Shown here one piece after another: positions 1 to 61,316 of a stretch of DNA of 64,000 nucleotides. The stretch lies in NCBI GenBank assembly GCA_000091205.1, contig AP006494.2; one strand, given 5' to 3'. The position numbers and the translations under genes were made by a program. The stretch comes from Cyanidioschyzon merolae (Eukaryota). A model generated the notes under the pieces. The model saw only the letters and a list, made by a program, of their open reading frames with translations. It was not told where the DNA came from and made no database searches. How positions within the stretch are numbered: the stretch's first letter is position 1; each line of letters opens with the position of its first letter.

Positions 1-1214
1 GCTCGCTCCGCCGATGCATCCGAACGCGACGTCGACGCCGACGCTCGTACAGAGCCAGACGCTAGGGCGGCGACACGCTCGGGAGCTGTGTCCGGTCCAG
101 TTTCAGCTACACCGCCAGCGGCTCCGGGTGAGGCACCGGCGGCCGCCAACTCGGAGGCGTGCCCCGTACCCGAGAGCCGCTCGGGTCCGCGGAGCACCCG
201 CGACGCACGCTCGCGCTCGTCCTTCCGCGCTGAGAGGAAGCGCCCGTCGAGCGCGGCAGCGATGGTCGGCACCGCCACGCCCCGCCGCAGTGCCTCCGTC
301 ATCGTCCACAGGCCAGTGCCCTTGCTCTCACTCCGGTCGAGGATTTGGTCTACGAGCGCTGGCGCCGACGCTGCCGACGAAGACGTGTCAGGCACGCGTA
401 GAATGCGCGCGGTAATCTCCACGAGGAAGCTTTGCAGGGCGCCCGCGTTCCACGAGGCAAATACTTCCGCAGCCGCCATCGCATCCAAGCCAACGGCACC
501 CCGAAGCAGGTCGTATGCCTCGCCGATCAGCTGCATATCGCCGTACTCGATCCCGTTGTGCACCATCTTCACATAGTTCCCCGAGCCGCCCGGCCCAATG
601 TAGGTAACGCACGGCCCAGAGCCGGGCACCTGCGCCGCAACCTGCTCCAGCAGCGGCGCAAGCTGCTGGTACGCCTCCCGTGAACCGCCCGGCATCAGGG
701 AAGGCCCGTAGCGCGCACCCTCCTCGCCACCGCTTACGCCCATGCCTACGTACAGGAGGCCGCGTGCCGCGACAGACGCAGCACGTCGCTCCGTATTCTC
801 GTACCACTCGTTGCCGCCGTCCACGATGATGTCGCCCGGCTCCAGAACCTCAGCCAGCGCCTCGACGGTTGCGTCGACTGCGCTCCCCGCCTTCACCAGC
901 AGGAATACCCGCCGCGGACGCTTCAGCGAAACCACAAACGACCGCAGGTCCGCAAAGCCGGTAACGCTCCCGCTGGCTGTCGTGTCATCTGCCGCGAGCT
1001 CCCGCTGCGCCCGCTCAACAGTCTCCGCCGTCCGCGCATACGTTCGATTGTACACAGAGACTCGCCAGCCGTGCGACGCTAGGTTCAGTGCAAAGTTCTG
1101 ACCCATGACCGCAAGGCCAATGACACCCGCGTCCGATATTGCGCGACCTGCAGGATGTGACGACGCGCTTTCCCGGACAGCACTCGACGGAGACGAGCCC
1201 TCCGCCGCAGACAT
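1..1214 (-). CDS. PGD: 6-phosphogluconate dehydrogenase (decarboxylating), 5' part; the ORF runs off the window start with no stop, so it is absent from the ORF track
   Basis: Manual translation of the minus strand from ATG (reverse complement of cat at 1212-1214) gives MSAAEG...GVIGLAVMGQNFALNLASHGWRVSVYNRT (NAD-binding signature), ...GDIIVDGGNEWYENTERR..., GMGVSGGEEGARYGPSLMPGG, and GPGGSGNYVKMVHNGIEYGDMQLIGEAYDLL. These are canonical 6PGD motifs. No stop codon before position 1. Confidence 0.85.
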   Translation of the reverse strand, partial: MSAAEGSSPSSAVRESASSHPAGRAISDAGVIGLAVMGQNFALNLASHGWRVSVYNRTYARTAETVERAQRELAADDTTASGSVTGFADLRSFVVSLKRPRRVFLLVKAGSAVDATVEALAEVLEPGDIIVDGGNEWYENTERRAASVAARGLLYVGMGVSGGEEGARYGPSLMPGGSREAYQQLAPLLEQVAAQVPGSGPCVTYIGPGGSGNYVKMVHNGIEYGDMQLIGEAYDLLRGAVGLDAMAAAEVFASWNAGALQSFLVEITARILRVPDTSSSAASAPALVDQILDRSESKGTGLWTMTEALRRGVAVPTIAAALDGRFLSARKDERERASRVLRGPERLSGTGHASELAAAGASPGAAGGVAETGPDTAPERVAALASGSVRASASTSRSDASAER

Positions 1215-1777
1215 GACGGCAGCACCACATGCTTGTGCGCGGCGGCCTCGGAGCAGGCACCAGCGAGCGCTTCGGACCAAGCTCAGGCTCCATGTCGGGT
1301 ACGTACGCCTGGGTGTCCAGGAGTGCGCACGCGGAGGCGCCCAGCGTCCGAAGCGCACCGCAGCGACAGGTGCGGCGGCCCAGCACAGCGCACCGCCACT
1401 GGGACTCCGGCGAGTGCCCGCTGTCGTCGCCATCCTTGAGGCGATCCACAGGTGGTTTGCGTGACCGAGGGCGGCCGGCCTGTTCACCGGGTGCGCCTCC
1501 TCGGTCTGCCGCGCTCTAGACGGGACAGCGCGCAGCGACTGGCCGTCTGGTGCTGCTTCCGGGACTCCTCAGCTGCCGATCCTGTGCCCCGGCGCGAGCA
1601 CTCGGCGACTTGACGTCTGGTGCTCGCTCAAGTCTCTCACGGTCACTACGACAACACGCACGCTCAAAAGCTGAGCACAGCGGAAAACAAAACCGATCCG
1701 CGATGCACGGGGGTGCTGCAGATCGATGCAGTCCGCGTCACGAGTTCTCGCAGTAGCACGAATACCACCGACAATAA

Positions 1778-1795
1778 CAGCAGCAGCAGCAGCAG
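1778..1795. repeat. (CAG)6 microsatellite
   Basis: cagcagcagcagcagcag read directly. Confidence 0.9.
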
Positions 1796-2013
1796 CAAGC
1801 AACGCAACGTACTCGGTCCACAAACAGCCGCAGTCAGCGACGAATGAGCGGCTCGCTCAGTAGCTCGCAACTGCAGCTCCAGCACGAGTACGGAACGGAT
1901 CGCAGACAGCCGCCACGAGGCCGCAGCGCTACGCACAGCGCGCGACGCACCGTCAAGCGCTATCCTGCGCTGACGGCCGCCGCAGCAACGCAGGCGGATC
2001 GAATGCGCACGGG

Positions 2014-2022
2014 TATATATAT
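2014..2022 (+). promoter_or_regulatory. TATA-like element (tatatatat) about 21-29 nt upstream of the 5S rRNA start
   Basis: gggtatatatatgaatatgg precedes the 5S start at 2043. Upstream TATA-like elements near -28 are known for 5S genes in plants and fungi. Confidence 0.35.
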
Positions 2023-2042
2023 GAATATGGAACCTTAATCAT

Positions 2043-2165
2043 CACTTGCGTTCAAACCATAGCTGGAAACACCGCGTCCCATCTCGAATCGCGAAGTTAA
2101 GCAGCATTGGGCTCTCTGAGTACTGTGATGAGGGATCGCACGGGAAACGGGAGTGACGCAAGTTC
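2043..2165 (+). rRNA. 5S ribosomal RNA
   Basis: CCCATCTCGAATCGCGAAGTTAAGCAGCATTGGGC...GAGTACTGTGATGAGGGATCGCACGGGAAACGGGAGTG matches the eukaryotic/plant-type 5S consensus (CCCATC..GAAGTTAAGC..TTGGGC..AGTACT..GGGAA). The 5' ACTTGCGT (2044-2051) pairs with the 3' ACGCAAGT (2156-2163) as helix I. Length is about 122 nt. Confidence 0.8.
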
Positions 2166-2167
2166 GC

Positions 2168-2171
2168 TTTT
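2168..2171 (+). terminator. Pol III-type T-run (tttt) immediately after 5S helix I
   Basis: agttcgcttttgcc; a T4 run 4 nt after the end of helix I. Confidence 0.4.
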
Positions 2172-2876
2172 GCCACCACGTCGCGCTGACCTGTTCTAAA
2201 GCGCGCATCAGCAGACGCGAGCCGGGTAGTCTGGCGGGGAAGCACTGTGAGGCCGGCTTGCTCCGGAATACACTTGCAACCGGTGGTCCAGATCGACGAC
2301 GATAACGAGTGGGTAACTGCGGAGGCCTGGTTGCACAGAGCGATCTTGCAGCGCTACGAACCGCAACACCTGCCGATATTCTGGAGGAGGTGCGATCGCC
2401 CCCGCACGACGAACCCCGTAGCACCCAGAGGGAGTACGCACCCGCGCTACACCATGAATGCTAAAAAGGGCGGCAGGGCAGGGGCTGTCGCCCCGAACGC
2501 GTATTGCAGACAAACTAGCGCGTCACGTTCATGTGCGTCGCGTTCTAGTCCGTCGCACAGCAACAGGAGCACTGGAAAAGATCATAAGCCAGCATGCTAC
2601 CGTGCAGCGCACTGTACCGCCTTCGCTTTACGTCATACGGAACTAGACAGGAAAGTTGCCACCACGCCAGCCACGACTCCATCGATGCGAGCATCGCGCG
2701 TGCGCACGCGTGCCCGTCGCATCGACCCCTAAGCCGCCGTGTACCGAACACAACTGCCTCCGTTCGTCGCGAATGCGCAGCAACCTTCCCTCTGACACAG
2801 AAAAACACATCGTGTCCATCACAGACGCCGGTGACAAGGCCGCGTATAGCACCAACGAACTCGCCACGAATCCGCA

Positions 2877-5800
2877 TCAGCATTGTTTGCGAGTATCTCG
2901 CGCCACGGTCCATTCCGGGATCGAGGCATTCAACGCCGTCGCCGGGGATGCGCCCAGAGTCGCCGTGCTCGAGAGCGCCTCGCGTCGTGCAACTAAATTC
3001 AAGCGCTCTGCGAAAAGCTCCTTCCGGTAAATCTCTACCTGCTCCCGCTCCCGAAGGAACTCCTCTTCGAGCTGCTCAAGTACTTTCATCTTTTCTTCGA
3101 GTTTCCTCACCTGAGTCTCGATCGCCTGTTCAGTAGCCCGGTGCAGCTCTAGATGCTCAATGGCGGCGAGCTCCGCGGCCCGAGTGGCCGCAGCGCCAAG
3201 CGCCGTTGCCGCAACGGCCTGGATTGCATTCGCATCCGCAAGCGCTTCCGGTGGTGCGTCGCTTTTCATGATCGCTGCCAACGCGGCCCGGGCAGCAGCA
3301 GCAGCGACATCCGGCGAGACGCTGTTCGCGAGAAACGCAATATGCGCCATCAAGGGGTTTCCGGCGTCGGCGAAGAGCGGCGGCTCGTTTCGTTCGGTCT
3401 GCGCCGTCTCGCCAGCTACAGCGGGTACCGCTAAACGACTCAAATCATCCTCGAGAAACGGATCTTCAATGGGTAGACGAATGAATTTGGTGATGCACGC
3501 ATCGCGGGAACGAGTGCCAACGTGCTGAGCAACCGCATCCCAGTCATCACCGTATGCCTCGATTCCTTCGAGAAGCTGCAGCACCTCAACATCAGTCCAG
3601 TCGTCCGTGCTCGGAGCTGTGAGGGTTCCAGTGGCGCTAGCCGCCGACCCCAGCGATAGAACAGGTCTTAATTCGATGAAATCTTTTCCATTGAAGTCCT
3701 CGGGAAACTTGCCCTGATGGTAGCATTCGGGGCACAGGTCCATATCGGCCTTGAGCAAACAGTGGTACCGGCGTTGGGAGCAGTCTCTCCCGCACACGTC
3801 ACACTGGTACTCAATGGCTGCCGCTGCGGCATATAATTCACGGCGCGTTGCCATGGGCGCCAGATGCATGCGCGATTTCGGAATACGCGACCCGTCGTCA
3901 AACAAGAATATGCGAGGAAGTCCGCCCTCAAGACCAGCTGAGCTTGCTGCCAGGCTTCCCGAGCTGGTGGAGATAAGCGTCGCACCGGAACCCGAAAACC
4001 CGCCGCTAACAGTCTGTGGGCGCGTCTCGGGTGCCACTCCGTAGTTAATCAGGCCCCACTGCTCCAGAAAGGCGTGCACACGCATGACGGCACCCACATC
4101 GCCAGCGAGATGCCTCCGAACAGCTGTGCCTGTTAGGTAGCGGGTCGGATCCTGCCGCCACGTGTCAATCATAAAATTTCGGTAAAGCATGTATACTTCG
4201 GGCGTTTTCGAAGCAAATTTCCCAGAGAAAAACTCCGGCAACGCGCGTCGCTCAATGTCGTGAATCGCATCGATGCGAAACCATCGGCTGTGCGCGGGAA
4301 CACGAATCGGCGACTTTTCACCAATCGCCGTGGCAGCAGCCGCAGCCGGAAGCGTTTCCCGCTCCGCGAGGCCACCGAGTGCCTCGGCGACGCGACGCGG
4401 TGCAAGCGATTCTCGATCACGTGGCGCGTGTGCTGCCGGCCCCGGAAGCGCATCCTCTTCGGCTGCCGCAGCGTCATTCCGCTCTTTTCGTCGTTCGCGT
4501 AATGCTTCTCGCTGCTGTGCTAACCTCTTCTGTAGCTGCTCATCCCGCGAAGATGCAGTTACATTGCGCATGCGCAGTGTCGCGTCATCTGGAACTAGCG
4601 GACGCACCGCTGGGCGTGAAATGCGCGGTGCAGCGCCGGCCGCAGCGCTTGGCTGCTCCGCATCGACCGCAGCGCCAGTCTCCGTTGTGAACGTGATCGG
4701 GCCAGCAATATTCGGTGCCGGAACTTGCTCCGCGGGTGCATTGCTCGAGCTTCCCGCGTCCTGGCTCGCTATCGGCGGTGCCAAGCGAACCTTGATCTTC
4801 ATCGGCTCTGCGGATTCCTCTCGGACGGCGCGCACCGTCACCCGTTCTGGCGTGCCGTCTGGCTCCGGCTTCACGGGACTCGGTTCAGCGGATTTTCGTT
4901 TCGACGGCGTCGGTGCTGCGGTCTTCGACTCGGATCCTCGCAGGTGGCCATCGATGCGCGAGGCCGATGGCGGTTTCCACTCATCGACATTGAGCTTCTC
5001 CTCTTCGGGTATTACCTCATAGTCGTTTTCATTGCACCACTCATTGAACTTTTCGCAATCCTCGAGAAATCTTTTCTGCACATGCCATATTTTGCCCTCA
5101 ATCACTCCGGAGAGATTCTCCTCCTCTCCGTGCAGTTCGCCGTCGGGATCTTCTACCTCCTGAGCGGGAATCCATGAATCGTACGAATCGGGAAAGTACC
5201 ACCAGTGCGTCAGTACTTGATTCCCTTTCCTTTTCAGACTCACGCAGTAGTCCTCTGCCTCGGTCTCAGCCTCTGTCGTGCCGGGTGGATCGGGGTACAC
5301 AATATGTGTTGCCTCGCGAGGCGACGAAACGACGGACGCACCATGCTTCCTTGCAATGGCGCTGAGGCGGTCAATCTCCGCCGAACCCAATGCCGGTGCG
5401 AAAAACAACCGCGGCATCTGGAGCTGTTTCCGTTTTATCAGTTCCCGCTCAACTTCTTGGAGCATCTCTAAAAAAACTCCAGTCATATCGGGTTTGTGGA
5501 GATCAAAACGCCGTATTCCACGAGCAACCCTGAACCGAAAACAGCACTCGAGAATCGTACGCAATGAGCCGTGTGCCGAATAGTCGTGAAAGAGACGATT
5601 CGGCAGTTTCGTCATGAAACCCCGAATTTCTGGCGGCTCGACGGAGTTCCGTCCGAGAACCCGCTCTTGAAACTGAAGCAGGTTACCGGTCAGGAGGCTC
5701 AGCGCGCGCGGGGAGACGTCCACAGAGTCGCCGGGTCGAAACCCCAGTTGTTCCGGCGGTTCAGCGTTTAGCTGTGCCGAGATTGCCTCGAACTTCGCAA

Positions 5801-6044
5801 TTTGATGAGGATCCTCGTAGTCTTTCATGGATATATTACAGGACTTTACCCGCTTCCGCCGCGAATCCGCAGGTCTCTGACCTTCAGCTGACGGAAAAGC
5901 AGTGTCTTCCCGCGCATCCGCTGCAGCTCCTGTGCGCACTTCTTCAGACGGGGTAGACGTCGACTTGTTCCCGTCCGGGATGTGTGTTCCGTTGCCTTGC
6001 TGCTCTCGCGCGGTGCGGGAGCGTCTCTTCCGCGGGGGAACCAT
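2877..6044 (-). CDS. SWI/SNF complex subunit, SWI3/SMARCC family (SWIRM, ZZ zinc finger, SANT; SWI3D-like architecture)
   Basis: SWIRM: WFRIDAIHDIERRALPEFFSGKFASKTPEVYMLYRNFMIDTWRQDPTRYLTGTAVRRHLAGDVGAVMRVHAFLEQWGLINYGV. ZZ finger: YQCDVCGRDCSQRRYHCLLKADMDLCPECYHQGKFPED. SANT: DDWTDVEVLQLLEGIEAYGDDWDAVAQHVGTRSRDACITKF. C-terminal coiled coil. The track start at 6053 is a GTG; the first ATG in frame is at 6044 (MVPPRKRR). Confidence 0.85.
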   Translation of the reverse strand: MVPPRKRRSRTAREQQGNGTHIPDGNKSTSTPSEEVRTGAAADAREDTAFPSAEGQRPADSRRKRVKSCNISMKDYEDPHQIAKFEAISAQLNAEPPEQLGFRPGDSVDVSPRALSLLTGNLLQFQERVLGRNSVEPPEIRGFMTKLPNRLFHDYSAHGSLRTILECCFRFRVARGIRRFDLHKPDMTGVFLEMLQEVERELIKRKQLQMPRLFFAPALGSAEIDRLSAIARKHGASVVSSPREATHIVYPDPPGTTEAETEAEDYCVSLKRKGNQVLTHWWYFPDSYDSWIPAQEVEDPDGELHGEEENLSGVIEGKIWHVQKRFLEDCEKFNEWCNENDYEVIPEEEKLNVDEWKPPSASRIDGHLRGSESKTAAPTPSKRKSAEPSPVKPEPDGTPERVTVRAVREESAEPMKIKVRLAPPIASQDAGSSSNAPAEQVPAPNIAGPITFTTETGAAVDAEQPSAAAGAAPRISRPAVRPLVPDDATLRMRNVTASSRDEQLQKRLAQQREALRERRKERNDAAAAEEDALPGPAAHAPRDRESLAPRRVAEALGGLAERETLPAAAAATAIGEKSPIRVPAHSRWFRIDAIHDIERRALPEFFSGKFASKTPEVYMLYRNFMIDTWRQDPTRYLTGTAVRRHLAGDVGAVMRVHAFLEQWGLINYGVAPETRPQTVSGGFSGSGATLISTSSGSLAASSAGLEGGLPRIFLFDDGSRIPKSRMHLAPMATRRELYAAAAAIEYQCDVCGRDCSQRRYHCLLKADMDLCPECYHQGKFPEDFNGKDFIELRPVLSLGSAASATGTLTAPSTDDWTDVEVLQLLEGIEAYGDDWDAVAQHVGTRSRDACITKFIRLPIEDPFLEDDLSRLAVPAVAGETAQTERNEPPLFADAGNPLMAHIAFLANSVSPDVAAAAARAALAAIMKSDAPPEALADANAIQAVAATALGAAATRAAELAAIEHLELHRATEQAIETQVRKLEEKMKVLEQLEEEFLREREQVEIYRKELFAERLNLVARREALSSTATLGASPATALNASIPEWTVARDTRKQC

Positions 6045-6054
6045 GAAAAACACG

Positions 6055-6879
6055 TCACAGAGTTACTAGCTCCACCGAAAGACTTTCAATAGTCGATAGC
6101 TTGAATATCAGTATACAGTAGTGGCGAGCTGCGCGCCCTAGATCATACGTCTCCAACTGATGCGCAGATGCCTCCCTGTCTTTTTTGGACCGGCCATCTA
6201 CTACTGGTTTCAACTTGTTTCCGTAAAATTCCACCTGGAGAGGTTCCCCCACAAAGTTGGCTCTTGTCAACTCTGGAGGCCTTCTTTCCATCACCGCACA
6301 TCTCCTGATATTGATAGCGACATTAAAGTCTCGGTTCACAAACTCCATACGTTTCTTGCCATCATTGGTTGTACTATCCGATGTGATTAGTCCACGATCT
6401 TTCGCCATCCCTTCCGGTGACTGCTTCGTCAGCGCTCCGTACTTTGATATATCCACAGGGCTCCTCTGGCACTTTTCGATCTGCACGCTCTGGAGTGTGC
6501 AACCCAGCTCATGGTGTGTATACGATGTTCGGAACTCATCTACAGGTATCGTAACGAGACGCCTTGCGCACTCCTTGTACGCTCTTGTCGTCGGAGCTGG
6601 TGGACATCCTTTTTGGGTCATCCAGCGCCCTGTTCCGCACGCTACTACGAGCCTCTGACTTTCATCCTCTTTGAAGGCACTCAACTCATTGAAAAAATTC
6701 GCGAATGCACGCGGTTTCCCACAATACAAGTTCATACGCAAACGAGCCCACCGGGGCTTTGCATACTCATTCCACAGTGCATCCCAATGAGCAACGCGAA
6801 CTTCCATGAATTCCTGACAAGCTTGAAAGTCTGCTCCGCGGCTCGTCATCTGGTTCATAGCTTCAAGGTGCTCTTGCAT
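6055..6879 (-). CDS. TnpB/Fanzor-like protein, C-terminal region (RuvC-II/Zn-ribbon/RuvC-III)
   Basis: ...RRLVTIPVDEFRTSYTHHELGCTLQSVQIEKCQRS...GKKRMEFVNRDFNVAINIRRCAV. The '..yTS..C' block followed by 'NRDxNAAINI' is the hallmark C-terminus of TnpB/Cas12/Fanzor RuvC nucleases. The start is a genuine ATG at 6877-6879. Confidence 0.6.
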   Translation of the reverse strand: MQEHLEAMNQMTSRGADFQACQEFMEVRVAHWDALWNEYAKPRWARLRMNLYCGKPRAFANFFNELSAFKEDESQRLVVACGTGRWMTQKGCPPAPTTRAYKECARRLVTIPVDEFRTSYTHHELGCTLQSVQIEKCQRSPVDISKYGALTKQSPEGMAKDRGLITSDSTTNDGKKRMEFVNRDFNVAINIRRCAVMERRPPELTRANFVGEPLQVEFYGNKLKPVVDGRSKKDREASAHQLETYDLGRAARHYCILIFKLSTIESLSVELVTL

Positions 6880-7115
6880 TCCTGCATTTCACGTCTCATT
6901 TTTCCCTCGCATTCAGTATTCCCGACTCTCGGTGATATCCCGCTCGTGAGAGGTTTAACTGATGCATGTCTTTCTGGCATAAATTGCCTTCAATACCATC
7001 CTCCGCAAGCTTGGGTACTGCGATGGTTATGATATTCGTATTCCCAGGGTCCGCGCCATCGACAATGTCGTTCTCATGCACTTCCTGCGTCGTAGGATAC
7101 ACCTGCTTCTTTTCT

Positions 7116-7730
7116 TCATGCTTCGTCATGGGCGATATCGAAGACGGACCAGTACGATCTGTCTCCAAGCGCCGATTGTGTACATATATGGCTACTCCAT
7201 CGCGTTCGATCATCCCCGTGAGTACATTTCGCTTGTCCTTTTTGTGACGTTTGAAATCGAAGATATTCTTCCAAGTACGTCTCCTGCTTTGTACCGGTGA
7301 ACTCTGTCTTCCTTACATCGAACTCCGGACAGATCTCCTTCATGATGCCGTACAGGATTCTGGAGTCGATCGTCACAACGCGTGACTTGATGTTGCACAA
7401 CGGCAGGACGTTGAAGTGCTTTCCCAGAAGCGCAGCCTTCCGTTTCTCCGACTCTTCATTTTTTCCCGCGCCTACGTCCTTTCCAGTCTTGCGTTCGAGG
7501 TCTCGGTCCAAAAACACGAGATAGTGCAGGATTAGGGTATAGGATCCTTTACCATATTTTTCCATATTTGATATTTTTTCTTGTGAATTCGCCAACCCCA
7601 GTACCGCAAGGTGCTTTCGAATAGCCGCGCGGATCACAGAAGCTTCATTCCTTCTCCTGCGTGACATCTTCCCGTCGACGAGTTCGATCTCTTGTGCATT
7701 CTTACTCTCGTTCGCGACGCCATTGATCAT
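7116..7730 (-). CDS. Putative upstream (N-terminal/RuvC-I) portion of the same TnpB/Fanzor-like gene
   Basis: [43 protein letters not shown]...[22 protein letters not shown] (basic NLS-like stretch; IDS..I could be a RuvC-I DxG-like block). It sits co-linear immediately upstream of the 6055-6879 ORF. Homology is not proven. Confidence 0.3.
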
Positions 7731-9710
7731 GGCTCATCTCCCTTTCCGAGCGAGACCCGGGTACAGCGCAAAGACGGCGCGTACCATGAAGCGTTTGGCG
7801 TTCATGGTCATCTGCTTCCTCAGGTTCGTGAGGTACTTCATTGCCCCGTAGGCGTAGACCTACGCGAGTCACCTCTGTATCTAGAACCGCTGCAGCGGTA
7901 TTTGGGGTAATTCTCGTTGAGGGCATGCACTCGCTCATTTTCGCCGACGTTTCCCCTCTACCAACGATCAAGTGGCAAATAAAGGTCCTGCTGAAAAAAA
8001 TCCTCCGGAACCGCGACTGTTTTGATGTCTGTCAGGTCGCGATACATCTATTTCACCAAATGCATTAGTCCTGAAAGAGCCTTTACATTACTCACGGAGT
8101 ATGACACGACACGGTTTCTGATGGCCTCTCGCATCTTTGCCTTGTACGCATTCTTGGTATGTCCAAGAGGACAGACTCTCACCACCGACTCTTCGTACTG
8201 TCGCCTTTCTTGCAGCCTTTGATGTCGGGCTTCCTTCTTTTGCTCCTTCTTCTCGTCCTGTTCTTCTTTGCTTAGCACTATTTTTCATTCTCTCCGTAAG
8301 TCGGCGACACTGTGCCTCCGGGATCCTCCACTTGCTTTTCCATACCTTTCCTTTTTAATTTTTTATGAAAAATAACGCTCGTTAAACGCGTCTGGTAGAA
8401 ACCGCGAAAAATCACTTTCGTTCACTGACATTAGGATTAGAACACAATTGAATTGAAAAACTATACGTTTCCACAACTTTAATGCAAATACAACTTGACC
8501 GGTAGAGCAACAAGACAACGAATGGTCACGAATGCATTTCCCTTCAAAGGCGACATGCGCGTCGTGTCTCGAGGCTGCCAGGTTTGGAGATGCGCGTATC
8601 GAGCGCGCTATATAGAACAAAGAACAGAGACTCACTTGTAACTAGCAACGAGATAACGAGTTCTTTCCCTGTCTACGATCAACGTCAAAAATGGGGAAAA
8701 GATTTCCATATTGTCCAAAATATTCCTCATAGGCGGACGGTCCCGCGAGCCGGACAAGTCTACCAGGCTGGTGCTTCCTGCTCCCCCAGCGGCAGGCGCT
8801 TTCGTGAACTCCGAGCAGCGCGTCCGCAACGCCATTCATTGTGGAATTACAAGTCGGCAGAATGCTTCTGGGCGTGTCGCCCTGGTCGCAGAGGGCTCCT
8901 AATACGCTGCTTCACGCTGCCGCAGGCAGAGGGTCTGTCTGCCCAGGTATCAGCCTCTCAAAATGATATTTAGCCCTGATTCCGTAGCAGATGGAGCACG
9001 CCTCGAGCCGATGCCCTCTGTGGTATAAAAAAGCCGTTCTGGCTCTAAGAACTATCTGCTCCAGCTGTTCAGGCGCAAAGGCGGATACGGAAAGGCAGGC
9101 ACTAGGCACACGATAGGACATAGGAAACGACCAGAATATCCGAGAAGAAATGTAGGTAATGTAACTTGGATGTAGGGGGTTTGATGGATACTTCACCGTG
9201 CACTGAAAAAAAAACACACGAAAAAGTAAGAAAAGAAAAATGCGCTCCATCGGGGAACGCTGGCCTGCGTTTTGTCATCGCATCGCGCCGGCCGCCAGGC
9301 AGGCTCCTGCCCAGCAATCGCGTCCCTGCGCTACTGGCCGCAGCGTTTCGATGCATCGCATCTGTTTCACCTCCGTGCACTGCTGCGGATCTGATGCGCT
9401 CCGCGAGATCGCAGCGCGCAGCCGCCACCGGCGTGCTGGAGCGCGTTATCAAAATTCAAATAGCAGCAGCGGAGGCTCTGCGTACGCTGCTGGCCGTCGT
9501 CGTGCATCAGCGCTGCGCCGTCGCAAACGCTGCCTACGAACCTTGAAGTTGGCTTGTTGTGTGCTTGGTTTCGTCGAGTGGTTTCGTAGGAGTCTCGACA
9601 TTGTTAGGCCCGATATCCGCTCAAGTTTGTACTCGCAAAACGTCAGTTTGTGAAAAAGTTCTTGCTGCATAGCTTCGTATACGAAAAGATATTTGAGAGA
9701 GTTCTGCACC

Positions 9711-10469
9711 ATGAAAACTCAGCAGCGGCCTGTGCTTGCTTATGCGCACTATATCTCGGACGACTTGAAAACCGGCAAGAAAGGGTCGGTGACGCTAGAA
9801 AAACCAGCCTCTGGGTCACCCATTCTCACGCTGGTTTATAAACTGAGCAATGATTTGAAGGTTTTCGCAACGGCGTCTGTGAAGAACTTCCAAGCGTCGA
9901 AAGTAGGTGGGGCGGTCTCGCTCCGTAACGTGAAGAAAGTGCGAAGCGGTGTGCTTGATATGGTTGTCGACGTTAAAGATGAGGACCGCCGAACAACTTA
10001 CACGTACCAGACGGTTGTTGACGACAAGAACAAGTACTCTCTGGCTGTTTCTGCAAATGGTGGCCCGCTCGGCGTCTTTAAAAAGGAAGAGGAACGCAGG
10101 GCCCATATCAAATGGGACGCAACCCTTGACGATATCGATGCGCTACAAATCAAGTACTCTTTCGCTTCGGACAACGATGTCGATGTCAAGTTGACTCATC
10201 GTGTGGATGACAAATGGAGCTGGGATGCCACGTATCACTACAAGAACGAGTCGTTCAGCGCGAATCTCATTCGCCGGATCTCGGACGACAAGAGCCTGAA
10301 AATCGGAGGCAACTTTCGGAGCAAGGCCTATCAGGTGGAATACAAAATCGGGGCGGAGGATGGCGGGCCCTATATCTTCACCCTTAAGGGAATGGTGGAT
10401 GAGAACTCAAAACTGCGTGACACGCTCAACCAGTCAGAGTTTGGTCTGAAGAAACGTTTCGATTTTTAA
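9711..10469 (+). CDS. Hypothetical protein (252 aa), beta-strand-rich, ends in ...GLKKRFDF (aromatic C-terminus, like organellar/bacterial outer-membrane beta-barrel beta-signals); lies in an AT-richer island
   Basis: A single ORF from ATG 9711 (the track start 9693 is TTG). It shows alternating hydrophobic/polar dipeptide periodicity (KLTHRVDDKWSWDATYHYKNESFSANLIRR, YQVEYKIG) and a C-terminal Phe. No known family recognised. Confidence 0.45.
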   Translation: MKTQQRPVLAYAHYISDDLKTGKKGSVTLEKPASGSPILTLVYKLSNDLKVFATASVKNFQASKVGGAVSLRNVKKVRSGVLDMVVDVKDEDRRTTYTYQTVVDDKNKYSLAVSANGGPLGVFKKEEERRAHIKWDATLDDIDALQIKYSFASDNDVDVKLTHRVDDKWSWDATYHYKNESFSANLIRRISDDKSLKIGGNFRSKAYQVEYKIGAEDGGPYIFTLKGMVDENSKLRDTLNQSEFGLKKRFDF

Positions 10470-10731
10470 CGTAAGTTTTCAAATCCCTGGCCGGAGGCTG
10501 TACTGGGAGTACACGGCTAACTGAAATAAAGATACGTGAGACCGTCGAGTCGACCTCTTGACCATTCCAGCAATGCCAAATTTGTTGTACCATGCGATGC
10601 GTTGAAGCGCCACGCGGGATGTTGCATCTCCAGCGCGGACGCATCCGCTTTGCCCCAGGTGCTGCAACTTCAGAGGTTACCAGTCAAACCGAAACAACGC
10701 GACATTAAGAAATGCACTCCCGTCGTCGCTG

Positions 10732-11664
10732 TCATTCACCTGCTAAAGATGCCGCCTGCCCGCTATCATGCTCTTGCAGCGCTTCTAACAGGCGGTGCAT
10801 ACGCTCCTCGTACCTCTCGAGCGCAAGCGCGAGCGCTTCGCCCTCAGCCATCGTTAGGTCGGCTAGTTCCGCTGCGTCGCGGAATGCGGTGATCTCCTCG
10901 CTCCATAAGCGAAACTGCTGCTCTCGTCCAGAGGCATATGCACTCCAGCCAGAATCACCGCCGCTGTTGCGATGATGATCCGAAACTGTAGGCACATCTG
11001 GTGCGTCCGTAGGCCTCGAGGCAGCACCAGGCTGATACGACGGGAACGGCTCATGGCCGCTGCACGGACGCAAGGTCTCGTGCTCTGGCGTTGCTTCCGA
11101 CGGGTCCATCATTGGCCCCGCTCCTCTCAACAACAGCATCGTGTCGTCGACCCCAGCACCACTTTCCGAGTCGTCAGCCGACGGCCGCGGCGGCGGCACG
11201 TACATACTGGCAATTCGAACGGCATCCCCAAGGATGTTCGTACAGCAGTGACGCACGGCCCGTGAGCTCGCGGGCTCTCGCATGATGTTATCCGAGTCCA
11301 AAAGAACCTTAATGGCGTGTTCGAGCTGAGCCTCTGTTGGCACGTCTGGCCCATGGAGCTCGTAGTCTGTCTCATTCGCCTCGGTATCCGAAACTGTGTC
11401 GCCTGCGCGACTTTCAGTCGACGCTCTGTCGGAAGGTGTACTTGAAGATGACCCAACGCTCTCAAAGTTATCCTCAGTAAGCGAGCTCGAATCAGAGCTA
11501 CTAAACCGACACGAGAGGCGGTTGCCGTGCGCGTCGACGGTCTCCCAGGAAGGCTTCAGATACCAGCGCAAAACGCGACGCCAACGACGCTCCTCGCACG
11601 ACGTGGCGGCCTCGACTGCCCGAACCCACTCTCGATAGTCGAAGCGGTCGTCACCATATTCCAT
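10732..11664 (-). CDS. Hypothetical protein, S/D/E-rich low complexity (310 aa)
   Basis: An ORF with a genuine ATG (MEYGDDRFDYREW...). No recognisable domain; acidic/serine-rich middle. Confidence 0.35.
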   Translation of the reverse strand: MEYGDDRFDYREWVRAVEAATSCEERRWRRVLRWYLKPSWETVDAHGNRLSCRFSSSDSSSLTEDNFESVGSSSSTPSDRASTESRAGDTVSDTEANETDYELHGPDVPTEAQLEHAIKVLLDSDNIMREPASSRAVRHCCTNILGDAVRIASMYVPPPRPSADDSESGAGVDDTMLLLRGAGPMMDPSEATPEHETLRPCSGHEPFPSYQPGAASRPTDAPDVPTVSDHHRNSGGDSGWSAYASGREQQFRLWSEEITAFRDAAELADLTMAEGEALALALERYEERMHRLLEALQEHDSGQAASLAGE

Positions 11665-12475
11665 GGATTCGCTCCAACAACCATTACAGAGCAGACCGTG
11701 TGCCCTAGTGCACGCAAAGTTCCGTCACCCGAACCGCGTCTATGCCAGCGAAACGCATCTAAAGCCCTAGCCCTCAGCGACCTGACACGGCTTCCTTGCT
11801 GACTGCACCTCTACGAAGCGAGCAGTACTCAGTGGTGCGAAGCGCAGTCGACGAGTCAGAGAAGGGACAGCAATGCTGGAACTGGATCCTATTTGAAGCC
11901 ACGGTGAATACAACCGTTCTGTAAGCGTTGTTGCGCGCACGCGTTCTAGTCTTTCAACTCGGTTCTGTGACACCCCAGGGAGATGGAACCGAATGCTATT
12001 CCGCATTGTATGGCAGGAGATCGAAACCACGATGCACAATGCTGTATAGGTCGAAGACGAATTGCCTGTAGCATCTATTCGTTACTGAACAGTGCAAGGG
12101 GGACTACATTCCTTCTTCAGGTCAGTCATACAACAGCACTCAGATGGACGAGGAATACTGAAAGGGAGAAGTGCATGCGCTTCGTACCAAAACCGTTGTT
12201 CTCAAAGAGTGCTTATGGTCAGTGGTATAAAACAAACCATTGAACACCTGACGGAAAGCAAAATCAACGATAGCAGCCACCTCGGATGTCTCTGTCTCTC
12301 AACAGCTTGTTCGTGTAGTCCTGCAAACACTGGAATAACGTCGCAAAAAAAGTCCTAGTTCGATCAAGATCAACTTTCACTGAAATCGCGCCTACAGCAA
12401 CCCTGGAACGTTGTGATCGGTATGAAGCAGAGCAACGTCGGTTTATTTTAGTCGATTAGACTTTCCTCGGGTGAA

Positions 12476-12867
12476 ATGGTTAGAGCGTATACGGGTATTC
12501 GCGAAGCAGATATCCCATTCTATATACGATTGACCTCGAAGAGAACGAGGATTTCATCTGTTCTAACTGTGGTGGATTCATTCGCCTGCCTCGATTTCGC
12601 TCGTAACGAAGGCTCATACAACAGTACCAAACACTCTGTCGAATCGTTGAAGACTTGCCCCTGTCATCTAGTGACGTCCTTCAATTAGGCAACATGGTAT
12701 ATGGCCTCTAGCCTTGGGTTCGGACTTTTGCCGTTTCTGTTGAGGCCGAGCTGCTTTCCATTCGTCCGTACGCTCCGAGGTTCAACTCCATCGAAAGAGC
12801 GTTTTCTATTGTGAAGCGTAATAATCGCTACATCCTGCGAATCGCTGAAGCGTTTCGCAAATTGTGA
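12476..12867 (+). mobile_element. Tc1/mariner-type (DDE_3) transposase remnant, frameshifted
   Basis: The frame ending at 12867 reads ...LLSIRPYAPRFNSIERAFSIVKRNNRYILRIAEAFRKL*, compared with Tc1/IS630 LPPYSPDLNPIE..W..lK. The upstream ORF (TVVDSFACLDFARNEG) is possibly the second-D region. It is homologous to the fragments at 36205-36537 and 47686-47934. Confidence 0.45.
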
Positions 12868-13190
12868 CAACAAGGCATATGTCATCTTTCTTCCGCAAGT
12901 CCTTTTTCCTCCGGGAACCTCCGCACCTCTTGGCATAAACGAGAGCATTCATTTTCAAAAGTAAAAACTCAAGGAAAATGTATAGAAATGTAAGCCGGGG
13001 ATCCTGGCTGTCTGGGGTGCCTGACTGCTGGAAACAAAAGGAACCCATTTCCATGCTCACAGGAACAGGAGAGAACCACGAAAGCACGAGCAGGAGACCA
13101 GACCTCAAAACTTGCCCAAAAGGGGAGACTACGACGAGCCTGTAGTGAACGTCTGCCTTCCTGGTCATACAAAACATCCGTACAAACAAA

Positions 13191-14325
13191 GGTAGCCTGT
13201 TACGCGAGGAACGCTCGCTCCGCTTCCCGCGCCTTGACACATCTCGTCACGCAACGATTCGTACGAGCTGTGGACGAAGGGATGCCAGCTGCTCATGTTT
13301 CTCTTCAGCGTCTCGATCAAACCTGCACGCGACAGCACAAGTGATGCTCGTTGCAGCAGATGCGATGAGCCCTGGTCGTGGAACCTGAGGGTTGCACAGT
13401 CGCCTCCCAGCGTCTGCTGACGAGTGGACGCGTTGGCTAGTTGCTGCGTCGCATCGCTGCTTCAGGAATCCATACGTCTGCAACGCACATGCCAAAACGT
13501 ATCGAGCCTAGCCCAGCAATCGTGTGCAGATCGCTGCGGGGCGCTTCATGAGGCGCACCCTGCCGCCGATGTCCTCGTTGCACCCGGGCCTCACTGGCCC
13601 GAAACAATGCGGAAAGCTAAAAGGGACGCTACACTCTAGATCGTAAAGAAGCGTCGAAATAGCGCTCGCGGATGATCTCGTGGCAGGTGCACACGATACC
13701 GCGCTGCTGTCGCCTCTGACTTTGACTCGACGGAGGCTAGAAGCGAGCAGTCGCCAACTTGCTCGATAAGCTGGAGAAGCGAACGACCGAGGAGTCGCGT
13801 CGATTGTTGCTTGCCTACGCAAACGGACGTGCTGGTGCGTCCGCGTGTCGCACACCAGCGCCCTCGACGGGAGCGTCCAGCGAGTACACAGGGATCGCAG
13901 CTGGGCGATTTCCCTGCAAGCGTTCGCGACGATACGGAAGCATCACGAGCGGGTGTGCGCAGCGATGCTCGCCGAGAAGCCAATCGTGAAACAGAGCCAG
14001 CTGCACGAGATGGTGCACGGTACGCTGGGCGGGCGCCAGACTGCGAGGGAATCAAAGGCGGGCCTCCCTGTACAGTGCGAGTCGACGAGCAACAACGCAG
14101 ACAGGCGCTCGCTGCACCGAGACCCGAACGCCTCGATCAGCATATGGACGAGTCACGTGCTTCCTGCGCGTCCAGCGGCGTTGTGTGGAACCATTCTTTG
14201 AGGTGATCGTTCCGTACACAGTCTAGACATTGTGCTGAAACGCTCAAGTCTATCGATGAGGAGAAATCGATTGCCAACAGAGAGAGCACGGAATGACCCA
14301 TCGGGGGCAGGGCGCTGGTACGGTA
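13191..14325. repeat. Direct repeat copy A (about 1.13 kb), about 98-99 percent identical to 23028-24162
   Basis: Identical ORF translations appear in the track for both copies with a few substitutions (e.g. 13759 MLDKLEKRTTEESRRLLL vs 23594 MLDKLEKRLTEESRRLVL). Boundaries were read from where the flanks diverge (shared ...agcctgttacgcgagg... to ...cagggcgctggtacgg). Confidence 0.85.
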
Positions 14326-14694
14326 CGCGTCGACCATGCATCAAACCTGGACCAACATGGACATATACATACCTGGAACAATATCCTACCCTATCCGTGA
14401 ACGATCATCGTGTCCCAGTATTCGACATTCATGCATATACCGTAAAACTGCACGCTTGGATAGTGCCTTTGGCCTTCAATCCATGCAAGCATCGGAACGG
14501 CATCCAGCGAGAGCTCAAGATGGCGCCTCACGTGCAAAGCACGAAGGACTGCAATGCGGACAGCAGGCTGGGCGCTGTCCACCGCGCGTTCCTGCCAGCT
14601 GCGCAAGCGCCGCCATCGGCTCGAGCTGCAATCTCCACACACGTGCGCGTACCGTAGCGCTGGAAAATGTTCGGTCAGTGTTCTGGGCGCCGCT

Positions 14695-16341
14695 ATGTCG
14701 AGTGTCCTGGAAGACTTTGGTAACGTTCTTGATTCAAGTCGTTGTGGGTATTGTGGTGACAATGAGCAATGTACAGATAATACTGAAGGAGAGCGCTGCG
14801 GGAGTCTCGCAGCGCATACCGAGCGTCGAAGGCGGCGTCTCCGGGGAGCGCTGTGGGCGCATCGCCTTCGCCTCGAGGACTACCGCGTGCTCATGGACCA
14901 TGGTTGGCGCCGTTCTGGTTGCTTCTTGTATTATCCAGATAACGATCATGGGTGCTGTCCACAGTACGCTGTTCGAGTGCCGCTATGGGATTTTGAACTG
15001 ACTCGCTCTCAACGACGCGTGCTGCGACGCTGGCAAAACTTTGTCTCGGTGCAAGGCGACCTCGCAGAACGTTGTTTCATTTTCTACGGTTTGACCATTA
15101 GCTCCAATTTGGAGAGCGCGAAACCATTACCTAGCGCAAAGCTGAACAAGACCGAACTGCAGCCTGTGGCCCCAAAACCCGTTGATGACCGTCTGGAGCA
15201 GTTGCGAATACACCTGGAACCGTCTCTGCAGCGAGTCCCGGTGAAAAGACGGCAAGTGAGTGGAGGCGCCCATTTCACCACCGCCATCGCCTGGAAACTC
15301 GCTTACGAGCATCGAACTTTTGTGACGCAAGAAGCAGAGCAACTCGCAGCCCGTCTCTGGGATCGAGGTGCAGCTCAGTTGGGGATCACCAGGATGGAGG
15401 TCTCCAACGGACACGTGAACCTTTACGATAGTCTGACGCAGAGCGCTACAGAGACGGAATGCCGAAGCTCCAGGAATCCATGCGCTCGTGCGGAACTGCC
15501 CGATAAACCCATTCGCTCGAAACCGGTACTCCGGATGGAGTTGCTCCCAGCAGCGTATCGCGAGGATGCTTTTCATTTATATTGCAAATATCAACGGCGG
15601 GTCCACGGCGACACAGACGAAGAGCTCAAGCCAGATCGATATAGTCGTTTTCTCGTCGAGCATCCTTTTCACGACGACGGAAAAGGTCGGCGACTCGGTG
15701 TCTCCCATCTCCATTTTTACATCGATGATGTGCTTGTCATTGTGAGCGTTCTCGACATGCTACCGGGTTATTTATCGAGCAAGTACTGTTTCTACGATCC
15801 TGACCTTCCGTCTCGTTTATCGCCTGGCATATTTGCCGCGTTATGTGAAATCCAACTGGCATGGACACACCTGGGCGCCAGTCATTATTACCTTGGGTAC
15901 TACATCCATAGCTGTAGCAAAATGCGGTACAAGGTCTCCTTTCGCAAGGCGCAACTTCTTTGTGGTCACTGCTTTCGATGGCAACCGTTCGCGAATGTTG
16001 CTCGTGACGCTCTCGATCGGGACGAGCATTGCGTTGGCTTCTGCAATAGATCCAGAGCAGCTACGGCTACGGATGATGCGAACGGTGCTCCTGGTGTTGG
16101 CGTTCGTGGTGTGGAGGAGCGTCATTCACGAGCCGCCGACGCCCGACTCGAGAAAGTCTTGGTTTGGCTGCTGGACGCTTCGGGTTGCTCCGCGGCATTG
16201 GCACCACAGCCGTTGTCGAGCGTGGAAACCGTCGAGCTCAGGGAGCGAATCCGTGCGGCTCTGCAGCGCTTGGCCGCAATGGTTCCTCCCAGCTTCTTGG
16301 AACGAATCATATACCTTCCGCCAAGGCAGGTGTTTTCCTAG
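14695..16341 (+). CDS. ATE1: Arginyl-tRNA-protein transferase (ATE1, N-end rule arginyltransferase)
   Basis: N-terminal Cys cluster CGYCGDNEQC, YRVLMDHGWRRSGCFLYYPDNDHGCCPQYAVRV (ATE_N), and C-terminal LGYYIHSCSKMRYKVSFRKAQLL (ATE_C). First ATG is at 14695 (the track start is an upstream alternative codon). Confidence 0.85.
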   Translation: MSSVLEDFGNVLDSSRCGYCGDNEQCTDNTEGERCGSLAAHTERRRRRLRGALWAHRLRLEDYRVLMDHGWRRSGCFLYYPDNDHGCCPQYAVRVPLWDFELTRSQRRVLRRWQNFVSVQGDLAERCFIFYGLTISSNLESAKPLPSAKLNKTELQPVAPKPVDDRLEQLRIHLEPSLQRVPVKRRQVSGGAHFTTAIAWKLAYEHRTFVTQEAEQLAARLWDRGAAQLGITRMEVSNGHVNLYDSLTQSATETECRSSRNPCARAELPDKPIRSKPVLRMELLPAAYREDAFHLYCKYQRRVHGDTDEELKPDRYSRFLVEHPFHDDGKGRRLGVSHLHFYIDDVLVIVSVLDMLPGYLSSKYCFYDPDLPSRLSPGIFAALCEIQLAWTHLGASHYYLGYYIHSCSKMRYKVSFRKAQLLCGHCFRWQPFANVARDALDRDEHCVGFCNRSRAATATDDANGAPGVGVRGVEERHSRAADARLEKVLVWLLDASGCSAALAPQPLSSVETVELRERIRAALQRLAAMVPPSFLERIIYLPPRQVFS

Positions 16342-23027: not shown

Positions 23028-24162
23028 CAGCCTGTTACGCGAGGAACGCTCGCTCCGCTTCCCGTGCCCTGACACATCTCGTCACGCAACGATTCGTACG
23101 AGCTGTGGACGCAGGGATGCCAGCTGTTCATGTTTCTCTTCAGCGTCTCGATCAAACCTGCACGCGACAGCACAAGTGATGCTCGTTGCAGCAGATGCGA
23201 TGAGCCCTGGTCGTGGAACCTGAGGGTTGCACAGTCGCCTCCCAGCGTCTGCTGACGAGTGGACGCGTTGGCTAGTTGCTGCGTCGCATCGCTGCTTCAG
23301 GAATCCATACGTCTGCAACGCACATGCCAAAACGTATCGAGCCTAGCCCAGCAATCGTGTGCAGATCGCTGCGGGGCGCTTCATGAGGCGCACCCTGCCG
23401 CCGATGTCCTCGTTGCACCCGGGCCTCACTGGCCCGAAACAATGCGGAAAGCTAAAAGGGACGCTACACTCTAGATCGTAAAGAAGCGTCGAAATAGCGC
23501 TCGCGGATGATCTCGTGGCAGGTGCACACGATACCGCGCTGCTGTCGCCTCTGACTTTGACTCGACGGAGGCTAGAAGCGAGCAGTCGCCAACTTGCTCG
23601 ATAAGCTGGAGAAGCGATTGACCGAGGAGTCGCGTCGATTGGTGCTTGCCTACGCAAACGGACGTGCTGGTGCGTCCGCGTGTCGCACACCAGCGCCCTC
23701 GACGGGAGCGTCCAGCGAGTACACAGGGATCGCAGCTGGGCGATTTCCCTGCACGCGTTCGCGACGATACGGAAGCATCACGAGCGGGTGTGCGCAGCGA
23801 TGCTCGCCGAGAAGCCAATCGTGAAACAGAGCCAGCTGCACGAGATGGTGCACGGTACGCTGGGCGGGCGCCAGACTGCGAGGGAATCAAAGGCGGGCCT
23901 CCCTGTACAGTGCGAGTCGACGAGCAACAACGCAGGCAGGCGCTCGCTGCACCGAGACCCGAACGCCTCGATCAGCATATGGACGAGTCACGTGCTTCCT
24001 GCGCGTCCAGCGGCGATGTGTGGAACCATTCTTTGAGGTGATCGTTCCGTACACAGTCTAGACATTGTGCTGAAACGCTCAAGTCTATCGATGAGGAGAA
24101 ATCGATTGCCAACAGAGAGAGCACGGAATGACCCATCGGGAGCAGGGCGCTGGTACGGGCCG
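23028..24162. repeat. Direct repeat copy B (about 1.13 kb), partner of 13191-14325
   Basis: See copy A. Confidence 0.85.
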
Positions 24163-35806: not shown

Positions 35807-36233
35807 TCAGTTGAGCAGAAACGCTCTGCGAACATAGGGTAAATGAATACCCACTCGCGCATGCCTCCCAACCTTTTTCGACTGGCCCCTTGCAATCTGT
35901 TTCAGCTTCTCCTTGCTCACCACGACACTGAGAGTTTGCCCCAGAAATTTGGATCGCGTCAGCTCCTCGGATATCGTCTTCAGCACCGCACATCTCCTGA
36001 TATTAATGGCGGCATTAGAGTCTCGGTTCACGAACTCCTTACGTGACCTGCCGCTTGTCGAACTTGCCGATGCAAGGCGTCCCCGAACTCGTGCCCTCAG
36101 TTCTACTTGGTGCTCTGTCAATTCTCAGCGCTTTTCTTTCGACGAAGTGCTCCGCTGCCTTCTCTCCATCTCAACCTTCCGAACTGTACATTCCAACTCT
36201 TTTCTTATATTTTGGAAAAACGAACGCACTTGC
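35807..36233 (-). pseudogene. TnpB/Fanzor-like gene remnant (copy 2), frameshifted, same family as 6055-6879
   Basis: GRSRKEFVNRDSNAAINIRRCAVLKTISEELTRSKFLGQTLSVVVSKEKLK...SKK is co-linear with copy 1 (FVNRDFNVAINIRRCAVMERRPPELTRANFVGEPLQVEFYGNKLK...SKK). The adjacent upstream frame gives KELECTVRKVEMERRQRS, compared with copy 1 HELGCTLQSVQIEKCQRS. It is interrupted by stops. Confidence 0.5.
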
Positions 36234-61084: not shown

Positions 61085-61316
61085 TCGCCCATGACGCATC
61101 CATTCCGAATGCTAGGATCTATGGTCAATCTACACGTTTCGTCCTCTGAAAAAGAATCGCCCATGACGCATCCATTCCGAATGCTAGGATCTATGGTCAA
61201 TCTACACGTTTCGTGCTCTGAAAAAGAATCGCCCATGACGCATACATTCCGAATGCTAGGATCTATGGTCTATCTACACGTCTCGTGCTCTGAAAAAGAA
61301 TCGCCCATGACGCTGC
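61085..61316. repeat. 72-bp tandem repeat (minisatellite), 3.2 copies
   Basis: Unit cgcccatgacgcatccattccgaatgctaggatctatggtcaatctacacgtttcgtcctctgaaaaagaat repeated at 61085, 61157, 61229, plus a partial at 61301, with a few substitutions. It ends about 100 bp upstream of the SDR start codon. Confidence 0.9.

Follow-up and report, generated by a model that had tools for sequence, protein, structure and literature searches.

A 64,000-nucleotide stretch of the Cyanidioschyzon merolae genome (assembly GCA_000091205.1, contig AP006494.2; referred to here as the window, with positions counted from its first letter) contains, between about 6.06 and 10.5 kb, a segment of low GC content that carries two features: a decayed copy of the Fanzor1 transposable element CMe-1A (6080–9280, minus strand) and, beyond an intergenic spacer (9281–9710), the gene CML063C (9711–10469, plus strand), which encodes a 252-amino-acid protein predicted to fold into a 16-stranded transmembrane β-barrel. 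An earlier note on this DNA had read the whole segment as one island of about 4.4 kb, and had considered the 252-amino-acid open reading frame (ORF) to be either the cargo of a mobile element or a horizontally acquired gene. We suggest that the apparent island is, quite probably, a composite in which a CMe-1A copy adjoins an unrelated native gene, each of them being low in GC.

The drop in GC content relative to flanks of about 60% GC, which had been noticed by eye, is borne out by calculation. A sliding-window analysis gave a value of 0.502 for positions 6060–10500, compared with 0.556 over the entire window and 0.560 outside the segment, while the genes on either side reach 0.585 (SWIRM gene, 2877–6053) and 0.596 (310-amino-acid ORF, 10732–11664). 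Among all 4.4-kb windows of the 64 kb (mean 0.552, standard deviation 0.022; 0.25% as low), the segment has the lowest GC content. The dip is heterogeneous and consists of two troughs, one at 6.08–8.64 kb (GC 0.41–0.50) and one at 9.71–10.47 kb (0.501), which are separated by approximately 1.07 kb of higher GC; positions 8641–9280 have a value of 0.517 (20th percentile of same-size windows), and the spacer at 9281–9710, with 0.572 (68th percentile), is ordinary for the window. A native spacer thus splits what had been taken for one island. A second patch of comparably low GC lies just beyond the segment, at 11.8–13.2 kb. Rfam and tRNA scans of the region from 5.5 to 14.8 kb yielded no matches.

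The Fanzor/TnpB-like locus that the earlier note had recognized is a near full-length, decayed copy, approximately 3.2 kb long, of CMe-1A, the single Fanzor1 family of C. merolae described by Bao and Jurka in 2013 (Mobile DNA 4:12, PMC3627910). A blastn comparison with the 3169-bp consensus taken from that study (supplementary file 2) aligned window positions 9176–6111 with consensus positions 84–3137 at 82.6% identity over 3072 columns, and local alignment of the ends placed the 5′ terminus of the element, CGATGACAAAACG (consensus 1–13), at position 9280 and its 3′ end, ...TTGAAAG, at 6083–6080. The window copy is collinear with the consensus over positions 1–3166 (approximately 83% identity) and shares with it the 5′ terminus, the hairpin-containing 3′ end and a single Fanzor ORF with the D/E/D motifs of RuvC; it differs from it in the first ~80 nucleotides past the terminus, where it has a variant 5′ sequence that is common to the copies L026, L028, L029, L030, L032, L040 and L050. 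The whole element has a GC content of 0.493, which corresponds to the 0.1th percentile of same-size windows. Its AT-rich leader, the presumed promoter region upstream of the Fanzor ATG (8344–8640, minus strand; 297 bp), was delimited by GC content and by alignment with the matching part of the consensus (...TTTTTCAAAAAATAAAAAAGGAAAGTTATGG); with a value of 0.414 it falls into the 0.2th percentile, and it contains, at about 8358–8376 and 8447–8467, the AT-rich strings to which the earlier note had pointed at 8.35–8.45 kb. The low GC content of the element, including that of its very AT-rich leader, would seem to be intrinsic to CMe-1A.

When the C-terminal 274-amino-acid Fanzor ORF of the window copy was used as the query, 408 related stretches with 65–75% protein identity to it were found in hot-spring metagenome contigs of the same alga, and the Fanzor-like locus can therefore be regarded as a high-copy repeat. 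Bao and Jurka (PMC3627910) counted about 150 CMe-1A copies with approximately 80% identity to a consensus of about 3 kb, found no terminal inverted repeats, and gave the target-site duplication as undetermined. The window copy conforms to this description: terminal inverted repeats and target-site duplications, which the earlier note had proposed to look for, were sought at 6.0 and 10.5 kb as well as at the true ends of the element, and only chance-level matches of 14–24 nucleotides were present. CMe-1A or related Fanzor elements have also left fragments elsewhere in the window (23516–23719, 35863–36199, 48967–49536, 53609–53831, 61098–61214 and 63692–63822), recognizable at either the DNA or the protein level, and several of these sit in 1-kb bins with a GC content near 0.50.

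The CMe-1 protein comprises 734 amino acids (Bao and Jurka 2013, PMC3627910). In the window, its coding region survives as a pseudogene remnant (6138–8343, minus strand), which was located by tblastn and the start and stop of which were read by comparison with the consensus. Probing with the 722-amino-acid ORF of copy L050 recovered it in four pieces, 8185–7868 (frame −1), 7859–7239 (frame −3), 7312–6899 (frame −1) and 6909–6247 (frame −2), so that at least three frame changes separate it from that ORF; an in-frame stop is present at about 7734, and an early stop follows MEKQVEDPGGTVSPTYGENEK. Because of these frameshifts and stops, by which it departs from the consensus, we regard the copy as dead: it is a member of the CMe-1A family, but an inactive pseudogene relic lacking an intact Fanzor1 ORF of about 734 residues. 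At least one of the frameshifts is polymorphic among strains, since two hot-spring metagenome contigs (L005 and L006) have the Fanzor region for residues 429–722 (window 6247–7126) in a single frame, whereas it is split over two in the window.

The RuvC-type (D-E-D) motifs of the Fanzor protein are still legible by eye as GADPGNTN, VDEFRTS and NRDFNVAINI, the last of which fits the pattern NRDFN[AV]AINI. The sole Pfam match of the 722-amino-acid L050 ORF was PF07282 (Cas12f1-like TNB; E value 0.22, 12 bits versus a cutoff of 26); the Fanzor fragments of the window had no Pfam match, and a PDB sequence search was empty both for them and for the intact L050 ORF. As these profile matches stay below threshold, the designation as Fanzor1 rests on the classification by Bao and Jurka together with the visible motifs. 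The window copy adds nothing new to the published CMe-1A family.

The ORF that follows the element is of a different nature. It is uninterrupted from 9711 to 10469 and ends in ...GLKKRFDF, precisely as the earlier note had stated, and its product is 100% identical to CYME_CML063C of C. merolae strain 10D, a "hypothetical protein" (BAM80684.1 / XP_005536720.1 / UniProt M1V8J3) that is encoded by a single-copy gene. The GC contents at its first, second and third codon positions (GC1/GC2/GC3) are 0.534, 0.352 and 0.617, respectively, and the GC3 values of its neighbors are 0.602 and 0.621. Since the deficit is confined to the first and second positions, the low GC content of CML063C stems from the amino acid composition of its product (K 11.5%, D 9.9%, S 8.3%), and it would reflect nothing more than a protein rich in K, D, S, N and Y and poor in A, G, P and R. 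The codon-usage comparison with neighboring genes that had been proposed hence gave no foreign signature; by contrast, the Fanzor fragments have GC3 values of 0.52–0.56, unlike the 0.617 of CML063C. In a relative of C. merolae whose ortholog is 88% identical (loci L001–L003; GCA_041825655.1 and metagenomes), the L001 ortholog has a GC3 of 0.64 versus 0.52–0.56 for its neighbors, and in Cyanidium caldarium (L004) the corresponding values are 0.85 and 0.76–0.83. The high C. caldarium value indicates that the gene follows the composition of its host genome. The ratio of nonsynonymous to synonymous substitutions (dN/dS) between the window gene and its L001 ortholog is 0.039, at a dS of approximately 1.8 (Nei–Gojobori).

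Gene order around CML063C is preserved in both of these species, and comprises the SWIRM gene (minus strand), the 252- or 254-amino-acid ORF (plus), an ORF of about 300 amino acids (minus), the arginyl-transferase gene ATE (plus) and a PIN/PhoH gene (minus). As called, the spacer between the SWIRM gene and the ORF measures 1.1 kb in the relative and 0.73 kb in C. caldarium versus 3.66 kb in the window, and no similarity to CMe-1A was detected at these four loci at either the DNA or the protein level. The same CMe-1A copy is present at the same site in three hot-spring metagenome contigs (L005–L007) that are about 99% identical to the window at the DNA level and that contain the same protein and locus. 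Judged by this comparison, the CMe-1A copy was inserted in the C. merolae lineage only. What detracts from this interpretation is that the empty site cannot be reconstructed to the nucleotide, as the spacers of the relatives are unalignable save for a block of 69 bp. The element would have entered the interval between the SWIRM and CML063C genes, which are transcribed divergently, after the C. merolae lineage had separated from the closest relatives that have been sequenced; the copy would since have come to differ by approximately 17% from the consensus of its family, and its reading frame would have been destroyed, leaving an inactive relic. The synteny check that the earlier note had called for therefore divides its claim, in that the insertion stands for CMe-1A, which is absent from the relatives, but not for the ORF and its neighbors, which are conserved in them.

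The idea that the entire 4.4 kb represents a single acquired mobile island, with the β-barrel ORF as its cargo or as a horizontally transferred gene, draws on the adjacency of transposon and ORF and on their similar GC contents (both about 0.50), which jointly make up the lowest-GC 4.4 kb of the window. Other observations argue against it. Homology to the repeat ends at about 9280 and is followed by 430 bp of unique spacer with normal GC before the ORF begins; 78 metagenome copies that were aligned to the window cover it from about 6110 to 9180–9265 and nowhere else, so that coverage over 9.3–10.8 kb is zero and not one of the 78 carries the ORF. In addition, the ORF is syntenic in relatives without the element, its GC3 matches that of host neighbors in three species, it has homologs across the red algae, and neither inverted repeats nor a target-site duplication were found. 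We consider a single island to be extremely improbable, and the cargo or horizontal-acquisition reading is refuted by the distance of the element end, the conserved synteny and the host-like GC3. In our view, CML063C is instead a real, vertically inherited, old red-algal gene, whose dN/dS ratio bespeaks strong purifying selection. An apparent low-GC island can thus be an artefact of adjacency, with a catalogued transposon lying beside a gene whose amino acid composition lowers its GC content, and checks of third-position GC and synteny sufficed to settle the question quickly.

The spacer at 9281–9710, which has no coverage by copies of the repeat, presumably contains the promoter of CML063C. 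Within it, a non-coding block of 69 bp (9393–9461) is 80% identical to positions 5522–5590 of L001 and is located at the same distance, about 245 bp, upstream of the ATG; the remaining spacer cannot be aligned, and synonymous sites are near saturation. This block may be a promoter element or an element of the 5′ untranslated region (UTR) of CML063C.

CML063C belongs to an unnamed family of proteins of 210–290 amino acids. An exhaustive HMMER search with a three-sequence Cyanidiales profile gave seven matches among 1.84 billion representatives, and two iterated profile (word-index) searches extended the family to about 25 sequence clusters; 28 member sequences were aligned. Named members originate from Cyanidiococcus yangmingshanensis, C. 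caldarium, Gracilariopsis chorda (BWQ96_01157) and Chondrus crispus (XP_005711548.1), and all are annotated as "hypothetical"; two metagenome members carry the label "opacity protein-like surface antigen" in IMG. As judged from these sequences, the family spans the Cyanidiophyceae and the Florideophyceae. All members whose C-terminus is complete terminate in K[KR]RF[DE]F, which agrees with the proposal of the earlier note that the terminal RFDF resembles a β-signal.

Several gene models of the family deserve comment. In the florideophyte members P0012, P0013 and P0020, an intron lies directly before the last β-strand, and florideophyte gene calls either stop at ...FNAR or run through junk before reaching ...GDWxIKRRFEF. 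Miscalling of this intron explains why the C-terminal motif is missing from many database entries of the family, which are truncated. In L088 (2525–3316), a homolog of the Cyanidiales type that is more distant (47–61% identity) is called as two ORFs with a gap of 57 bp, probably a short intron in the style of Galdieria-like genomes, and it would suggest that the family occurs throughout the Cyanidiophyceae. Two metagenome proteins from JGI (P0003 and P0004) contain exact pieces of CML063C, 28–30 residues in length, joined to sequence of unrelated origin, which in one of them comes from a macro-domain protein; these look like chimeric assemblies or gene calls and not like genuine fusions.

The structure prediction that had been suggested for the 252-amino-acid protein returned a barrel. 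With the 28-sequence alignment as input, AlphaFold2 produced a model with a mean predicted local distance difference test (pLDDT) score of 80.3 and a predicted template modeling (pTM) score of 0.71, in which 207 of the 252 residues have a pLDDT of at least 70. The model contains 16 β-strands and one short helix before the last strand. Foldseek comparison with the PDB retrieved only membrane barrels (FapF, OmpU, PgaA, Omp33, OmpG and VDAC). The strands are amphipathic: nearly every one has a hydrophobic and a polar face, with a mean difference in hydrophobicity of 2.57 versus 1.64 ± 0.30 for shuffled strands (about three standard deviations), and charged residues (K, R, D and E) abound on the polar faces, as would befit a water-filled pore. 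Neither a signal peptide nor a hydrophobic helix is present in CML063C, and the longest hydrophobic run comprises three residues.

One might object that CML063C is a soluble or secreted β-rich protein, with the AlphaFold barrel being an artefact of a shallow alignment. The model built from three sequences only was indeed unusable (pLDDT 31), the good one derives from just 28, residues 1–24 are poorly defined, and the protein is very polar. We deem this very unlikely, given the confidence of the model over most of its length, the fact that all significant structural neighbors are transmembrane barrels, strand amphipathicity beyond the shuffled control, the retention of the C-terminal aromatic motif across the deepest red-algal split that was sampled, and the lack of both a signal peptide and a hydrophobic helix. 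These data support, at the level of the model, a 16-stranded transmembrane β-barrel with a confidently predicted fold, and thereby favor the guess made in the earlier note of a barrel of the organellar or bacterial outer-membrane type.

We infer from these properties that CML063C would be synthesized in the cytosol, and that an Omp85-type insertase would recognize the conserved C-terminal strand (...K[KR]RF[DE]F) and insert the barrel into the outer membrane of an organelle, where its charged interior may allow it to serve as a hydrophilic channel. The likeliest site would be the outer envelope of the plastid, a location to which we assign a somewhat better than even chance, and CML063C would there be a counterpart of the 16-stranded OEP24/Toc39-type barrels of the green lineage. 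We lean towards the plastid for several reasons. The number of strands is even (16), and none of the 28 family members has a Porin_3 match (E ≤ 1); VDAC and Tom40 have 19 strands. On these grounds, an identity of CML063C with VDAC or Tom40 was rejected, as was one with Omp85, Toc75 or Sam50, since neither the Bac_surface_Ag profile nor POTRA was found and no member has an Omp85 Pfam match.

The C-terminus points in the same direction. The terminal FxF of the CML063C family matches the C-terminal consensus of cyanobacterial outer-membrane proteins (FxF; PMC2222254); the alignment shows no conservation of the canonical mitochondrial PoxGxxHyxHy pattern in the last strand. According to Imai et al. 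2011 (PMC3045335), few mitochondrial barrel families are left to be discovered; surveys based on the β-signal recovered, across eukaryotes, essentially nothing beyond Tom40, Sam50, VDAC and Mdm10 (PMC3045335). Together with the number of strands, the lack of Porin_3 and Omp85 matches and the restriction of the family to red algae, these observations make it unlikely that CML063C is a mitochondrial outer-membrane β-barrel inserted by SAM/Sam50.

A further reason for favoring the plastid is that the chloroplast barrel Toc39 is the best organellar structural neighbor of the CML063C model, and that it connects to OEP24: a COB preprint predicts 16 strands for this solute channel, another preprint (bioRxiv 10.1101/2025.06.18.660430) reports Toc39 as the top HHpred PDB match of Arabidopsis OEP24A (probability 96%), and OEP24 has Foldseek neighbors in rhodophytes. 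One could envision CML063C as a subunit of the TOC import complex of the red-algal plastid, analogous to Toc39/Ctap4, the second outer-envelope barrel of Chlamydomonas, and not as a free solute channel. This appears quite improbable, because sequence identity in the structural alignment with Toc39 is as low as 7%, a search of the PDB sequences with the family profile misses 7vcf_I even at E = 10, unrelated bacterial 16-strand barrels score equally high or higher, and Toc39 has been described as specific to green algae.

We tentatively propose, at rather less than an even chance, that the CML063C family constitutes a red-algal plastid outer-envelope channel: an ancient 16-stranded barrel that is distantly homologous to OEP24/Toc39 and that perhaps derives, as its FxF terminus would fit, from an outer-membrane protein of cyanobacteria. 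None of the arguments for the plastid is decisive, and the fold scores of the model do not discriminate between organelles. Several points weigh against the proposal. The confidence of the model is low for the N-terminal residues 1–24, so that the number of strands may be wrong by one element. A comparison of the family profile with a provisional pea OEP24 sequence by hhalign gave a probability of 3%, which is not significant and serves as a lead only. At the sequence level, searches of Pfam, NCBIfam and the PDB provided no link to a named family: the ORF alone had no Pfam match and no PDB match by phmmer, a few members had sub-threshold matches to Porin_4, DcaP, OMP_b-brl and YaiO, and NCBIfam returned noise (TipC; YaiO at E ~1e-3 in four of the 28 members; a phage tail tube protein at E 0.07). 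A literature search, finally, gave neither a paper naming CML063C nor localization, expression or transport data for it.

Comparison with the known types of barrel sets the family apart from each of them. OEP24 and Toc39/Ctap4 (PDB 7VCF chain I), the 16-stranded plastid outer-envelope barrels of the green lineage, show no sequence similarity to the CML063C family that was detectable by Pfam, PDB profile search or hhalign, and they differ in their C-termini, the red-algal family strictly keeping K[KR]RF[DE]F; by sequence, OEP24 has been reported as restricted to streptophytes. The 16-stranded export barrels and porins of bacteria (PgaA, 4Y25; BcsC, 6TZK; PelB, 9H80; OmpU; Rhodobacter-type porins) are 4–10% identical to CML063C, which is a eukaryotic nuclear gene found in red algae only and the product of which has neither periplasmic TPR or other extra domains nor a signal peptide. 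The eukaryotic porins of the Porin_3 type (VDAC, Tom40, Mdm10) possess 19 strands and an N-terminal helix, in contrast to the 16 strands of CML063C, which also lacks the Porin_3 match and the canonical mitochondrial β-signal.

The genes that border the locus are conserved host genes. To the left lies a gene for a SWI/SNF-type protein with Pfam SWIRM, SWIRM-assoc_1/2, ZZ and Myb domains (2877–6044, minus strand); it is syntenic in L001–L006, and its start codon at 6044 (MVPPRKRR) is kept in the relatives. The 3′ end of CMe-1A (at about 6080) is located 36 bp upstream of this ATG, and from these coordinates the promoter and 5′ UTR of the SWIRM gene must now begin in, or cross, the 3′ end of the element. 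It is in this region that Fanzor/TnpB elements encode their guide RNA. To the right, and convergent with CML063C, is the 310-amino-acid ORF (10732–11664, minus strand), which was taken from the ORF list and has no Pfam match or known domain; a gene of 284–310 codons is present at the same position and in the same orientation in L001, L003, L004, L005 and L006.

A second enlarged spacer of low GC content (11665–14700) separates the 310-amino-acid gene from the arginyl-transferase gene; it measures approximately 3.0 kb, whereas the L001 counterpart has 0.46 kb and that of C. caldarium 0.31 kb. Older debris of the CMe-1 type lies within it: positions 12942–13196 have 70% identity to consensus 870–1119, and positions 13681–13884 encode a stretch with 41% amino acid identity to Fanzor residues 547–614. 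Downstream of the 310-amino-acid gene, ATE and PIN/PhoH come next in L006, in agreement with the window, whereas a TAF8 gene follows in L005; either a rearrangement between strains or a chimeric assembly accounts for this difference, which adjoins the second region of transposon debris.

With the transposon part already published, the useful new result is the gene CML063C. Annotated so far only as "hypothetical", it gains a confidently predicted fold, a defined family, a C-terminal motif and evidence of strong constraint. According to the preprint mentioned above (bioRxiv 10.1101/2025.06.18.660430), OEP21, OEP24, OEP37 and OEP40 are confined by sequence to the green lineage, which leaves the passage of metabolites across the plastid outer envelope of red algae without an assigned protein. 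CML063C would be an ordinary-looking member of the outer-membrane β-barrels, with some value as a candidate for such a pore. Should the proposal prove true, the Rhodophyta would have their first identified metabolite pore, or TOC-associated barrel, of this kind, and as C. merolae is genetically tractable, this single-copy candidate is directly testable.

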